Shown here in pieces: positions 8,391 to 47,018 of a stretch of DNA of 64,000 bases. Under the pieces are notes generated by a model. It was given only the letters and a program-made list of their open reading frames with translations, made no database searches and was not told where the DNA came from. Position 1 is the stretch's first letter, and every line of letters begins with the position of its first letter. This DNA is from an uncultured bacterium (lineage in GTDB: Bacteria > Hinthialibacterota > Hinthialibacteria > Hinthialibacterales > JAKPRU01): assembly GCA_964612675.1 (NCBI GenBank), contig CAZTDD010000004.1:38386-102385 (forward strand), read 5' to 3'. Both the position numbers and the translations under genes were made by a program.

Positions 8391-8661
8391 GGGGGTCGCA
8401 AAAAGTCGAAAGTTGGCATCGGAAGTTCCCTCTCCCCCCGGGAGAGGGTTAGGGTGAGGGGCGTTAATTGCATCGGGTTCGATCATTATGACTAGCCTGT
8501 GTATTCGTCAGAGACAGCAAATGAATCAGCGGCAAAGGGTTTGGATGATGACAGGGGTCTGCCACAGACAAAGGAATGTCAGCGGATAATGCAACGTGCC
8601 CTCACCCCGGCCCTCTCCCAGAGGGAGAGGGAGAAGAGTTCTCGCGACTTTTTGCGACGGC
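8391..8661. repeat. Inverted pair of MITE-like repeat copies (A 8391-8463, B 8596-8661) of repeat family 1
   Basis: Copy A is ggtcgcaaaaagtcg...ggaagttccctctccccccgggagagggttagggtgaggg. Copy B is its reverse complement, ccctcaccccggccctctcccagagggagagggagaagagttctcgcgactttttgcgacggc. A third copy lies at 46927-47018. Each copy has an internal ctctccc-N-gggagag palindrome and terminal gtcgcaaaaagtc inverted repeats. Confidence 0.7.
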
Positions 8662-8680
8662 ATCAGGTATGAGGGTGGTG

Positions 8681-9004
8681 TTATCCCTGCAACCAGCTGC
8701 GGATCACCGCGGCAACGTCTTCAGGATTGGATCGACTGAAGTCGCGGACGTACTTCTCCATCTTGAGACGGCGTTGCTGATCGGCGGGAAGGGAGGCAAT
8801 CTCGTCAAAATCCGTGATGCCGAGTTCGGACAGCGTCAATTCACGTTGTGACACGACGGGTTCGGCTTCTTCCAGTTCCTCGCCGAATCCTTCCCGGTCA
8901 GATACCTGTTTCGGCCGGAAATCCCGGCAGGCCATGATATAGCCCGCAATACAGAACGTGGACAGCCCAACGACAATTGTTGCCGTGTTGATCAGTTCTT
9001 CCAT
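8681..9004 (-). CDS. Small membrane protein resembling the C-terminal TM2 plus FliG-binding tail of the flagellar MS-ring protein FliF (orphan fragment)
   Basis: 107 aa with one TM helix (TATIVVGLSTFCIAGYIMA) and an acidic cytoplasmic tail ending NPEDVAAVIRSWLQG. This resembles the conserved FliF C-terminus (D-P-x-V-A-x-V-I-R-x-W-M/L). No FliF N-terminal region is present upstream. The assignment rests on motif similarity only. Confidence 0.35.
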   Translation of the reverse strand: MEELINTATIVVGLSTFCIAGYIMACRDFRPKQVSDREGFGEELEEAEPVVSQRELTLSELGITDFDEIASLPADQQRRLKMEKYVRDFSRSNPEDVAAVIRSWLQG

Positions 9005-9271
9005 ATCGCCATTCCCACAAGCAGTTTACACGTGCATCGAGTGGAGTCGGATTCGCAGTTTCCACCGAACACTCACCTATATAGTACCGATGAATGACAT
9101 CCATCGCAACAATTCCGGCACGCCATGGACTTGACGCTGTTAGCCCTCGGAGTCAAGATAGTTTTGCTATTGACATGGAATTCTACGCTGATATCAAAAT
9201 CTTTGGATATCTCTCTTCGGCAAGGCCGCCCGGAAGCAACTAGAGATACCCACCATCGACTCTGTAACTAA

Positions 9272-10171
9272 ATGGCCGAACGATCCCCATATAATCTCTG
9301 TTTCTGCGGCTCGCTCGATCCTCCAACCAGGTACGAGGACTCGCGTTTTGTGGTCGTCCCGATTCCATACGACCACACGTGCACATACGGCACCGGTGCT
9401 CGTTTCGGCCCGCGTGCCATTCTCGAAGCCTCTGCGAACATCGAGTTGTACGACGAGTTCCTGGACTGCGAACCGTACCGCGCCGGCATCTGGACTCACG
9501 AATCGGTGGAACCGGTGGTCACCGGCCCAAAAGAGATGACCGAACGCGTGCGCTCGCTGATAGCGGGGCTTCTCGATGAGGGAAAAACCCCAGTCCTTTT
9601 GGGGGGAGAGCACAGCATTTCTCTCGGAGCGGTGGAGGCGTGTCGCCGGAAAGAACCGTCTCTCTCCGTTCTTGTTATCGATGCACACGCGGATCTTCGA
9701 CCCGAATACCAGGGGAGTCCTTACAGCCATGCGTGCGTACAAAGGCGTTTTCTGGATTTCGGTTGTTCGGTGGTCCAAATCGGGGTCCGAAGTCTTTCCG
9801 GGGAAGAGGCGAAGTACCGAAAAACCGTGCCGAGACTAGCAAGTCTAAGCGTCCAGGATTATCGTGAGATGATGCGAACGGATCCGGAGGATTTCCGTTC
9901 GATCCTCGGAGAGCATTTGACGGATAAGATTTATCTCAGTATCGATTTGGACGGTCTCGATCCGTCGATCATGCCGGCGACCGGTACACCGGAACCGGGT
10001 GGATTGCTCTGGGAAGAGATTACGGAAATTCTGACACAGGTTTGGCGGCGAGGGAGTATCGTCGGGGCGGATATTGTGGAATTGGAACCGATTCCAGGAA
10101 TGCGAGCCCCGGATGTACTCGCAGCCCGACTCACCTATCGGTTGATGGGCCTCGTCGCAGCAAAGAAATAA
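9272..10171 (+). CDS. speB: Agmatinase / ureohydrolase (arginase family)
   Basis: 299 aa. Arginase-family Mn-binding signatures are present: GGEHSIS, VLVIDAHADLRP and LSIDLDGLDPS. The N-terminal TYGTGARFGPRAI block is typical of agmatinases. Confidence 0.85.
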   Translation: MAERSPYNLCFCGSLDPPTRYEDSRFVVVPIPYDHTCTYGTGARFGPRAILEASANIELYDEFLDCEPYRAGIWTHESVEPVVTGPKEMTERVRSLIAGLLDEGKTPVLLGGEHSISLGAVEACRRKEPSLSVLVIDAHADLRPEYQGSPYSHACVQRRFLDFGCSVVQIGVRSLSGEEAKYRKTVPRLASLSVQDYREMMRTDPEDFRSILGEHLTDKIYLSIDLDGLDPSIMPATGTPEPGGLLWEEITEILTQVWRRGSIVGADIVELEPIPGMRAPDVLAARLTYRLMGLVAAKK

Positions 10172-10195
10172 ACAAGAAGAAGTGGGGGGAACCGA

Positions 10196-10759
10196 ATGGA
10201 CACCATTGGAAAACTCGTTCCGAGAAGAATGTTTTTGACAAAAGGCGTCGGCTGGCACAAAGAAGAGCTGCGCTCGTTCGAGATGGCGCTACGCGGCGCG
10301 GGGATCGAAAAATGTAACCTGGTGAATGTTTCGAGTATTCTCCCGCCGGGCTGCAAGATCATTCCCACGGACAAAGGAATCAAAGAACTCGTTCCGGGCC
10401 AGATCACCTATTGTGTGATGGCACGTTGTTCAACCAATGAGCCCCGCCGGAAATTGGCGGCCTCGATCGGTGTCGCGATCCCGCGAGCCAAAGGGACGTA
10501 CGGTTATCTGAGCGAACACCACGCCTTCGGGCAGTCCAAGCAGGAAGCGGGCGATTACGCCGAAGATTTGGCGGCGGCCATGCTCGCTACCACACTCGGT
10601 ATCGAATTCGATGAAGACAGCTCGTGGGACGAGAAGGAAGAGGTGTACCGCCTGTCAGGGAAAATCGTTGGCAGCAAAAACATCACTTCGGTAGCCGTGA
10701 ACAAACCCGGTGGATATACGACGGTGGTTGCGGCAGCCATTTTCTTGTTGGAACCCTAG
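10196..10759 (+). CDS. pdaD: Pyruvoyl-dependent arginine decarboxylase (PdaD/AaxB family)
   Basis: 187 aa. FEMALRGAGIEKCNLVNVSSILPPGCKIIP aligns with the archaeal PdaD self-cleavage region (..NVNLIRISS|IMPP..) and keeps the Ser-Ser processing site. It starts 25 bp downstream of speB on the same strand, making a putrescine pathway pair. Confidence 0.8.
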   Translation: MDTIGKLVPRRMFLTKGVGWHKEELRSFEMALRGAGIEKCNLVNVSSILPPGCKIIPTDKGIKELVPGQITYCVMARCSTNEPRRKLAASIGVAIPRAKGTYGYLSEHHAFGQSKQEAGDYAEDLAAAMLATTLGIEFDEDSSWDEKEEVYRLSGKIVGSKNITSVAVNKPGGYTTVVAAAIFLLEP

Positions 10760-10807
10760 TTTTCTCGAGCGTTCATTGCGGGTACGCGTTTATTGGCGAC
10801 ATATATT

Positions 10808-10940
10808 CAATGTCACGAAGCCGAGTCATCCGCGAGAGAATGCCGGGAGCGCGAGTCTCCCGACGAACCGAAGAGAACAGAAAGACTCGGCTCAGCAGGA
10901 GCTTCGCCCTCCCACGACCAGCCCACGTCAGCCTAACGTG
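10808..10940. repeat. Degenerate copy of hairpin repeat family 2
   Basis: The right arm cggctcagcaggagcttcgccctccc (10888-10913) is a perfect family-2 arm. The left arm cgggagcgcgagtctcccgacgaaccg (10844-10870) is degenerate. The flank caatgtcacgaag is related to the family TIR caatgtcattaagtt. Lies in the convergent gap after pdaD. Confidence 0.5.
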
Positions 10941-10964
10941 ACGGTACATGCAAATACCATTGGC

Positions 10965-46051: not shown

Positions 46052-46268
46052 GCGTCTCCGGCGGCAGGGAGTGTCCGGAAGAGGTCGGTTCTCTCCACGC
46101 GTCCTCGATGGCCCTACGGGTATCTCTCACTTCAAATACAAGATCTTCCAAGGATCGCTTCAATTGAACGAGGAAGTAAAGGATAAGCCCGAGAAAGATC
46201 AGCGGGATAATGCTGCCGAACAGGCCAAACATGAACATCGGAAAAAAGGCTACAGCTGAAGCAGACAT
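46044..46268 (-). CDS. Small membrane protein (74 aa), paralog 1 of 3
   Basis: About 30 hydrophobic residues (AVAFFPMFMFGLFGSIIPLIFLGLILYFLV) followed by a charged tail, QLKRSLEDLVFEVRDTRRAIEDAWRE. Same architecture as 46279-46479 and 46640-46864. Confidence 0.5.
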   Translation of the reverse strand: MSASAVAFFPMFMFGLFGSIIPLIFLGLILYFLVQLKRSLEDLVFEVRDTRRAIEDAWREPTSSGHSLPPETHG

Positions 46269-46278
46269 CTATCGTTCC

Positions 46279-46479
46279 TCACGATCTTGAATTCGGGGGC
46301 CGATATCTTGAATAATTTGTCACCGCTCGGCGCATGTCCCGCATCTCCAATACGATCTCGTCTACGGTGCGTTTGACCTGTACAAGAAAATAGATGATGA
46401 GCCCGAGAAACACCAGTGGAATGATGGATCCGATGAATCCCAACAGCACGATTGGGGCAATAAAAAAGACTTCCGGCAT
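46279..46479 (-). CDS. Small membrane protein (66 aa), paralog 2 of 3
   Basis: FFIAPIVLLGFIGSIIPLVFLGLIIYFLVQVKRTVDEIVLEMRDMRRAVTNY, about 60% identical to paralog 1. Confidence 0.5.
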   Translation of the reverse strand: MPEVFFIAPIVLLGFIGSIIPLVFLGLIIYFLVQVKRTVDEIVLEMRDMRRAVTNYSRYRPPNSRS

Positions 46480-46551
46480 GATCTATTCTTCTTTCTTCAG
46501 TTTTGTTCTTTTCTCTTCTTTTTTGCTCTCGATCTGCTTAGGCACTCAGCG

Positions 46552-46578
46552 CAGGTCCGGGAGTTCAACTCCTGCACC
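46552..46578. repeat. Palindromic hairpin of the GGAGTTCAACTCC core family
   Basis: ggtccgggagttcaactcctgcacc, an imperfect palindrome located just after the stop of small-protein paralog 3. Confidence 0.5.
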
Positions 46579-46639
46579 AGCGGATCGAGTCTATCATGTC
46601 GAGCCGGTGGAAGGCCCTTGTTCCCCGACAGGTCCGGAT

Positions 46640-46864
46640 TCAAGTTGAGTTCTTGTCATCCTGTCCATCGCTCGTTCGAGTGCAACCCGAGTATCGTGCA
46701 TCTCGCAAGCCAGGTCTTGGGTGTTCCGTCTGACAAGCCAGGTCTTGGGTGTTCCGTCTGATTTGAAACAGAATATAGAGGATCAGACCAAACAACGCTA
46801 TCGGAATCAGCGTCCCGAAAAGGCCAATCCCCAGCACGACAACACCTTCTATCGCTCCAGGCAT
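46640..46864 (-). pseudogene. Small membrane protein paralog 3, frame-shifted by a 28-bp tandem duplication
   Basis: The N-terminus GAIEGVVVLGIGLFGTLIPIALFGLILYILFQIRRNTQDLA is homologous to paralogs 1 and 2. A perfect direct duplication of caagccaggtcttgggtgttccgtctga (46706-46733 and 46734-46761) follows. Removing one copy restores the paralog-like tail ...ACEMHDTRVALERAMDRMTRTQLESG. Confidence 0.55.
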
Positions 46865-46926
46865 AATGGTTCCTTGTTTCCTTTCTTGATTGTCCTGCTA
46901 CAATCCCTCTTACCGTCAAGATAGAT

Positions 46927-47018
46927 GCCGTCGCAAAAAGTCCAAGAATCGGCCCTCACCCTAACCTCCCGGCGGGAGAGGGGAACTTCTAATGTCAGCG
47001 GACGACTTTTTGCCGCAG
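46927..47018. repeat. Third copy of MITE-like repeat family 1
   Basis: gccgtcgcaaaaagtcc...gccctcaccctaacctcccggcgggagaggggaacttc...gacgactttttgccgcag. A palindromic core is flanked by inverted gtcgcaaaaagtc termini. It matches the copy A/B pair at 8391-8661. Confidence 0.65.

Follow-up and report, generated by a model that had tools for sequence, protein, structure and literature searches.

Small intergenic elements with BoxC-type cores in an uncultured bacterium are probably non-autonomous transposons with terminal inverted repeats

The sequence analysed (the window) is a 64,000-nucleotide stretch of contig CAZTDD010000004.1, from an uncultured bacterium, and this report concerns two small non-coding elements that lie between its genes. 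Element A separates two convergent genes, whose stop codons are at 8383 and 8681 and which encode a 1332-aa CarboxypepD_reg-repeat protein (+ strand) and a 107-aa protein (- strand). Element B separates two divergent genes, which start at 46864 and 47102. A preliminary description of this DNA had listed three copies of a 75-95 bp repeat; the stretches are indeed related, but they represent two elements rather than three equivalent copies. The stretches 8391-8463 and 8596-8661, listed as separate copies, together form one insertion of ~274 bp, of which they are the two arms (left and right), and the copy at 46927-47018 was real but was re-bounded as a complete short form with both ends (46925-47021). 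The intergenic placement held for all copies. Both elements are likely to be non-autonomous transposons bounded by terminal inverted repeats (TIRs), that is, MITEs (miniature inverted-repeat transposable elements).

Element A, the long form (8390-8663), consists of two inverted arms and a 136-bp non-coding interior (8462-8597), the edges of which are partly inverted-repeated. The TIR core GTCGCAAAAAGTC is matched exactly at 8395-8407 (+) and at 8646-8658 (-), where the + strand reads GACTTTTTGCGAC, followed by ggcat at 8659-8663. A hairpin, CCCTCTCCC-N3-GGGAGAGGG (perfect 9 + 9 nt), is present in each arm (8428-8448 and 8611-8631); because the hairpins are palindromic, CCCTCTCCC-NNN-GGGAGAGGG also forms a direct repeat between the arms. 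The left hairpin belongs to a type A (TTA linker) BoxC/TMECO motif at 8428-8460 (+), CCCTCTCCC-ccc-GGGAGAGGG-tta-GGGTGAGGG, and the right hairpin to a type B (CCG linker) motif at 8599-8631 (-), CCCTCTCCC-tct-GGGAGAGGG-ccg-GGGTGAGGG; both fit the published TMECO pattern. A canonical G-quadruplex (G4) motif coincides with the type A motif's G-rich part (8440-8461) and a second lies inside the type B motif (8599-8619). The element is flanked on the left by the target-site duplication AAGGTATG (8382-8389), which overlaps the first copy (8383-8393) of a perfect 11-nt direct repeat, AGGTATGAGGG, and on the right by CAGGTATG (8664-8671), with the second 11-nt copy at 8665-8675; the stretch bracketed by the 11-nt repeats is 8394-8664.

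Element B, the short form (97 bp, 46925-47021), is composed of atgcc, an exact TIR core (46930-46942, +), a 10-nt spacer, the motif, a second spacer, the right TIR core and agcgt. The right core (47004-47016, -), which reads GACTTTTTGCCGC before the agcgt, corresponds to GCGGCAAAAAGTC and has two mismatches to GTCGCAAAAAGTC. The motif is a degenerate type A motif on the - strand, made up of CCCTCACCC (46953-46961), CCTCCC (46965-46970) and GGGAGAGGG (46974-46982). The duplication CAAGATAG is found at 46917-46924 and 47022-47029, within the perfect 11-nt repeat CGTCAAGATAG (46914-46924 and 47019-47029). Just 5' of the neighbouring 766-aa gene, a sequence at 47082-47096 (ACGAGTTTTTGCTGC) resembles the right end of the element and is partly conserved, as ACTATACGACTTTGAGCGGC, upstream of a 64%-identical ortholog (L024); it may be an old end remnant, a conserved 5' leader or a chance match.

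The shared blocks CCCTCACCC/GGGTGAGGG of the preliminary description were restricted in the window to 8452-8460, 8599-8607 and 46953-46961. Runs of C and G give the core a low complexity, as would be expected if the likeness were a chance similarity of G/C-rich sequence or an assembly artefact. However, the chance expectation for an exact 13-mer is ~0.002 occurrences per 128 kb of two-strand sequence, and exact copies occur three times. When an arm profile was run over the window with nhmmer, the four arm positions were recovered with E values of 4e-20 to 3e-13, and there was nothing comparable in the rest of the window, only a weak match near 59000. The same architecture was present in independent assemblies and collections, and in independent Logan assemblies of the same organism the element ends (8614-8723 and 46937 onward) were reproduced base for base. 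Chance or artefact is thereby effectively refuted. Three independent Logan assemblies end at 8614, inside the core hairpin, and a further Logan contig begins at 46937, within element B; such breaks are expected at sequence that is repeated over at least 31 nt elsewhere.

The arm pair of element A spans 34 nt with 85% complementarity, and the element is predicted to fold into a single long hairpin of -62 kcal/mol, compared to -38.9 +/- 3.9 for shuffled sequences (z = -5.9). Folding had been suggested as a check, and the result was positive for element A but not for element B, the predicted stability of which was not significantly above that of shuffles (z = -1.75). The open reading frames (ORFs) that had been called artefacts were confirmed as such: MQLTPLTLTLSRGERE is the ORF 8258-8473 (-) and PHPGPLPEGEGEE lies within the ORF 8576-8851 (+). 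The interior of element A is overlapped only by ORFs of 57 aa or less, and the ORFs that overlap the elements are artefacts of at most 91 aa, the longer of which extend into flanking DNA, so the elements have no coding capacity.

The preliminary description had proposed a search for target-site duplications, and both window elements proved to be flanked by perfect 11-nt direct repeats. As their orientation is direct rather than inverted, these flanking repeats represent duplications and do not belong to the TIRs. The family as a whole points to a geometry of a 13-nt core, five variable terminal nucleotides, mostly starting with A (ATGCC, ACGGC), and an 8-bp duplication. This geometry was derived from metagenome Ga0164318, where a second repeat, CTCCCCCAAGATTGGGGGAGATACAGAG (also read CCCCCAAGATTGGGGGAG), is intact in contig L004 and interrupted by an element in contig L009. 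The junctions in L009 read CCCCCAAGATTG / ACGGC-GTCGC...GCGAC-CCGGT / CAAGATTGGGGGAG, with CAAGATTG duplicated. The ends of two elements in L004 were exactly 8 bp apart.

Flanking 8-mers at a fixed distance from the cores were compared for eight complete elements, three from the window (elements A and B and W-C, the sister element described below) and five from other contigs. Left and right 8-mers were identical (8/8) for element B (CAAGATAG / CAAGATAG), L009 (CAAGATTG / CAAGATTG) and L002 (TAACGTTG / TAACGTTG), and matched at 7/8 positions for element A (AAGGTATG / CAGGTATG) and L008 (CCAATTTG / CAAATTTG), at 6/8 for L007 (CAGGCTTG / CAAGATTG) and L025 (CAAGTTTG / CAACTTTA) and at 4/8 for W-C (TGAGATGA / CAAGATTG); the W-C, L025 and L008 values were counted by hand from the sequences and the other five were taken from a computed table. 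The matches sum to 54, whereas none of 1e6 random draws exceeded 34. The 8-mers also resemble one another, an indication that CAAGATTG-type targets are preferred. A true length of 11 bp was considered and set aside, as 8 bp fits the family geometry better; the window elements alone leave the choice undecided. The 11-nt repeats of the two window elements are in different registers, so the duplication might be longer or variable.

Corresponding sites were then compared in relatives. The representative of the 107-aa protein's cluster (at 90% identity) is encoded on L018, an ENA contig from a closely related strain. The same convergent gene pair is present there with 13 bp between the genes, compared to 297 bp in the window. 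The flanks align with few substitutions, the target is present once, in a diverged form, and element A is absent as a block. That a related strain lacks the element at this position suggests that the motif can spread by transposition.

A reciprocal case was provided by L025, a syntenic relative in which the agmatinase is 79% identical. It carries a 92-bp short form at 3570-3661, upstream of a 1328-aa repeat-protein gene, and at the corresponding insertion point the window is uninterrupted and reads atccatcaagactcaacgaaaatcg. At L025:7951-8651, which is orthologous to window positions 8384-8680, a HEPN/nucleotidyltransferase pair (toxin-antitoxin-like) takes the place of element A, which indicates that the gap between the convergent genes is a variable hotspot. 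The window's own organism has a similar HEPN/NTP_transf_2 pair at another place, downstream of the 766-aa gene (L019:4599-5181). In the case of element B, the downstream gene's nearest ortholog (L024, 64% identical) has no element upstream; 9 nt separate two conserved upstream blocks, compared to ~170 nt including element B in the window. At this divergence the absence can be seen but the exact boundaries cannot. The term MITE-like, as used in the preliminary description, was therefore borne out by inverted termini, flanking direct repeats, an empty site in a related strain and a reciprocal filled/empty site.

These results also bear on an origin of the repetitive extragenic palindrome (REP)/REPIN type, in which a domesticated IS200/IS605-like Y1 transposase (RAYT) would have copied the two inverted arms as a REP doublet. 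Such doublets share with the elements G/C-rich imperfect palindromes in inverted pairs and a strictly intergenic position, and the pairing of type A with type B recalls the paired REP types of E. coli bacterial interspersed mosaic elements (BIMEs). To our knowledge, however, IS200/IS605 Y1 transposases insert without target-site duplication, as do REPINs. The flanking direct repeats, the clean filled/empty site and the duplicated target do not fit this origin, and the conserved ends are long TIRs, unlike the hairpin with a short 5' tetranucleotide that is typical of REP. Among the 26 window ORFs scanned, almost all of at least 250 aa, there was no Y1_Tnp gene, small ORFs not being included in the scan. 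The TnpA(REP)-type partner that had been suggested is disfavoured because the window elements carry duplications, and a RAYT/REPIN origin is for the same reason very unlikely.

Collections of genome, metagenome and viral contigs, in which the source genome is not included, were scanned with the pattern GTCGCAAAAAGTC-N10-40-GGGAGAGGG; two loci were found in genome contigs, eight in metagenome contigs and none in viral contigs. The same architecture was identified in a deltaproteobacterial metagenome-assembled genome (MAG; L002), in Ga0164318 contigs L004, L005, L007 and L009, and in low-GC sediment contigs L008 and L010/L011. The window itself contains two elements of the family plus one sister-family element. 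L010 (2430-2700) and L011 have an additional hairpin of ~41 nt between the G blocks (GGGAGAGGG-[hairpin]-GGTGAGGG), in the same position as the extra stem of the whalefall-1 RNA consensus.

When the translations of the artefact ORFs were used as probes, a single close copy was found, P0001, an artefact ORF on another NCBI contig that reads through a near-identical arm and a similar interior edge. The other matches were generic LPLPLGEGRGEG ORFs from unrelated repeats that bear the TMECO motif (for example in L016) and were rejected as family copies. Many database "proteins" of the LPLPLGEGRGEG type (P0002-P0016; L016:6290-6400, GCA_001469165.1) are translated BoxC-type motifs. These widespread spurious ORFs come from BoxC-type motifs within other, unrelated hairpin repeats of high-GC genomes.

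The family occurs in long and short forms. Removal from element A of the segment between its two hairpins predicts the sequence ggaagttCCCTCTCCCagaGGGAGAGGGagaaga, which is carried by L005, L007, L009 and L025; most short forms thus derive from deletion between two identical hairpins. Element B is a different derivative, in which the left end and 10 nt are joined to a complete TTA-type arm. All derivatives retain both ends, as would be expected if recognition by a transposase is still required.

The element at 58738-59066 (W-C; variant ii motif) is a long form of a sister family. Its left end is acggg followed by GTGGCAAAAAGCC, and its right end is TACTTTTTACCGC followed by actgc and then CAAGATTG. 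The arms have the form TTCAACCCCCTC-N5-CTCCCCC-N6-GGGGGAG, and the motif comprises a C block (CTCCCCC), its complement (GGGGGAG) and a mirrored block (GAGGGGG/GGAGGGGG), the arrangement also being written CCCCCTC ... CTCCCCC-N6-GGGGGAG. The arm is conserved in L004, L007 and L025. The layout of C block, G block and mirrored G block is therefore shared with elements A and B while the sequence is not, which suggests that layout rather than exact sequence is selected; the property under selection may be the potential for a hairpin and a triplex, or for alternative hairpins. The left arm is broken by an unrelated MITE of ~140 bp (58799-58939) with the TIR CAATGTCATTAAGTTA, matched at 16/16 positions (58799-58814 and 58924-58939), and the direct repeat CTCTGTATCT(C), with CTCTGTATCTC at 58789-58799 and 58940-58950.

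The preliminary description had regarded the structured core as probably unnamed, but it fits base for base an E. coli motif known successively as BoxC, PIT (potential intrastrand triplex) and TMECO (PMC4666352). The TMECO pattern, CCCTCNCCC-N3-6-GGGNGAGGG-N3-GGGNGAGGG, has 3610 copies in 262 proteobacterial genomes (PMC4666352), and earlier work on the motif includes Bergler 1992, Bachellier and Hoyne/Maher 2000, as cited there. There were exactly two strict matches in the window, at 8428-8460 (+) and 8599-8631 (-), and the 64 kb contain no canonical G4 motifs other than the two that coincide with them; the element B motif does not match the strict pattern, owing to a 2-nt deletion in its C block. 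The arms of element A are accordingly predicted to be triplex- and G4-prone. In vitro, oligonucleotides of the E. coli motif folded into a triplex that was stable (Holder et al. 2015, PMC4666352). Kaplan et al. 2016 (PMC5100583) proposed that the motif acts as a G4-hairpin-duplex switch, although its function is not established (PMC4666352; PMC5100583). Holder et al. reported no links to mobile elements and no transposase remnants for the motif (PMC4666352). The TIR-bearing element around the core appears to be undescribed in the literature searched, where nothing was found that links triplex or BoxC motifs with elements having TIRs and target-site duplications.

The identity of the core with a motif that forms a triplex in vitro (PMC4666352) and may act as a G4-hairpin-duplex switch (PMC5100583) raises the question of a host-selected structural or regulatory element that never transposed, such as a triplex/G4/hairpin switch, a terminator or a small RNA, for which recombination or gene conversion would be the means of spread. 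Element A does lie between convergent genes, a useful place for a terminator, and there was a weak match of whalefall-1 (RF01762), a metagenomic RNA motif of unknown function, to the type B motif (17 bits compared to a gathering threshold of 37, E = 0.06), which does not make the element a member. The two elements nonetheless have opposite contexts, convergent for A and divergent for B, neither contains a promoter or terminator consensus, and they are absent from close relatives; PIT elements assayed in E. coli had no promoter or terminator activity (PMC4666352). Such an element would also leave the TIRs, duplicated targets and nested insertions unexplained, and we regard this explanation as unlikely. 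Promoter and terminator readings were separately rejected, as the junction sequence TTGAC(G) is not followed by a -10 box and sigma-70 and intrinsic terminator scans were empty, and so was a structured-RNA reading, as no Rfam family reached the gathering threshold for the elements. The sole Rfam match in the window to reach that threshold was a tRNA gene at 15714-15785 (+).

Non-autonomous TIR transposons would be expected to show what is observed here: TIRs, duplications, empty sites, nested insertions and deletion derivatives that preserve the ends. Such elements would be mobilised in trans, probably by a DDE-type transposase making a staggered 8-bp cut, and integration would duplicate ~8 bp, perhaps with a preference for CAAGATTG-like targets. 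The hairpin/triplex/G4-prone motif may be a selected cis-feature rather than cargo, because a sister family with similar ends keeps the layout of C block, G block and mirrored G block. The arms might function in transposase binding, in synapsis, or in replication stalling that favours integration or internal deletions.

Several observations weigh against transposition of this kind. Under the 8-bp model the duplication of element A matches at only 7/8 positions, although an 11-nt repeat in a different register is perfect, so the length of 8 bp is provisional. The outermost five nucleotides differ among copies, which is unusual for tips that are recognised by a transposase. The targets are near-alike, with an 8-mer of the CAAGATTG type recurring at several ends, and could reflect site-specific recombination instead. 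One-ended copies of the sister element (L004 and L025:2655-2745) are not explained by simple cut-and-paste, and copy number is known only indirectly. Finally, no transposase domain was detected in the 26 window ORFs scanned (all but two of at least 250 aa), and no transposase with matching ends was present in the loci examined, the pattern scans having returned non-coding elements only.

We know of no autonomous insertion sequence (IS) that matches these elements. IS982, whose ends start with AC and whose direct repeats measure 3-9 bp, may be entertained as a partner but is not claimed as one. A scan of viral contigs for a partner with the 18-nt terminus ATGGCGTCGCAAAAAGTC returned two unrelated small non-coding elements and no IS. 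In these IMG/VR contigs (L030:62-79 and L031:274-291) the terminus heads a different small non-coding repeat that is common to both, and its surroundings yielded neither a triplex motif nor a second end to match, nor an inverted pair of IS size. Elsewhere in the window, a gene at 10965-12320 (-), which adjoins the agmatinase and arginine decarboxylase genes, has a weak Pfam match to Portal_Mu and no NCBIfam match and may be a prophage remnant; it encodes 435 aa in a Logan contig and 451 aa as a mechanical ORF.

Catalogues of BoxC/PIT/TMECO motifs go back to the 1990s and cover hundreds of genomes, without an agreed account of the origin, function or spread of these motifs, which are conserved across distant bacteria and tied to local genome instability. 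The present elements offer a concrete mechanism by which BoxC-type motifs could be dispersed, a route that was unreported in the literature searched, and this mechanism would also account for the recurrent inverted A + B pairs and the single-hairpin derivatives. The triplex/G4-prone structure of the DNA may belong to transposon function or to the choice of target. A broader proposal, which we put forward only tentatively, is that a widespread superfamily of mini-transposons with TIRs and target-site duplications has BoxC/PIT/TMECO motifs in its arms; the window elements would be intact and still mobilisable members of it and the E. coli copies decayed relics that have lost their ends. The triplex-prone layout might then be a cis-requirement for transposition, since the sister family retains it with a different sequence. 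In practical terms, the elements break short-read assemblies and yield spurious ORFs of the PLPLGEGRGEG and PHPNPLPGGEG type, which pollute protein databases.

Comparison with known systems shows where the elements stand. With whalefall-1, the consensus of which has a CUCUCC/GGAGAG hairpin followed by a distant GGGUGAGG, the window core shares a three-block layout; the score is below threshold and the window element is known here as a DNA sequence only. REP, BIME and REPIN sequences share the G/C-rich palindromes, the inverted doublets of two subtypes, the intergenic location and, probably, the high copy number, whereas long TIRs and target-site duplications set the window elements apart. Bacterial MITEs, such as the Correia elements of Neisseria, ERIC/IRU and RUP, are likewise small, non-coding and intergenic, have TIRs and a target-site duplication, form hairpins and give rise to deletion derivatives that retain their ends. 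The window elements differ from bacterial MITEs in general in the triplex/G4-type motif of their arms and in the striking similarity of their CAAGATTG-like 8-mer targets; two MITE reviews (PMC10969869, PMC3184786) make no mention of such a motif with MITEs.

The likeness to BoxC in E. coli begins with the motif itself, which is identical (CCCTCTCCC-N3-GGGAGAGGG-TTA or CCG-GGGTGAGGG) and is also intergenic. E. coli has five inverted pairs, always of type A (TTA) with type B (CCG), as in element A. At hrpB-mrcB, strain MG1655 has the pair, 7_12_15B has a single hairpin, with a deletion exactly between the hairpins, and the motif is absent from ATCC 25922; BoxC therefore resembles the window family both in its conversion from long to short form by deletion between the hairpins and in its presence/absence polymorphism from strain to strain. 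In a survey of this pair in 5,426 E. coli genomes (L012, L028 and L029), the A + B pair, single-hairpin and absent states were all seen, and ~35% of the genomes were without the full region. A second locus, ygfF-gcvP, was unsuitable as an empty-site test, as ygfF itself is missing in other strains. The E. coli copies examined had no GTCGCAAAAAGTC TIRs and no evident target-site duplication; their type A arms share a conserved (GT)CAAAAAG(G/T)GC ~21 nt outside the motif, where conservation ends, and this block may be a TIR remnant, although it is only a lead. The published census of the motif covers proteobacteria and some cyanobacteria, and the present elements come from an uncultured lineage represented by a MAG. 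What distinguishes the window family from E. coli BoxC is that its arms are bounded by TIRs, its targets are duplicated and a clean empty site is present in a related strain.

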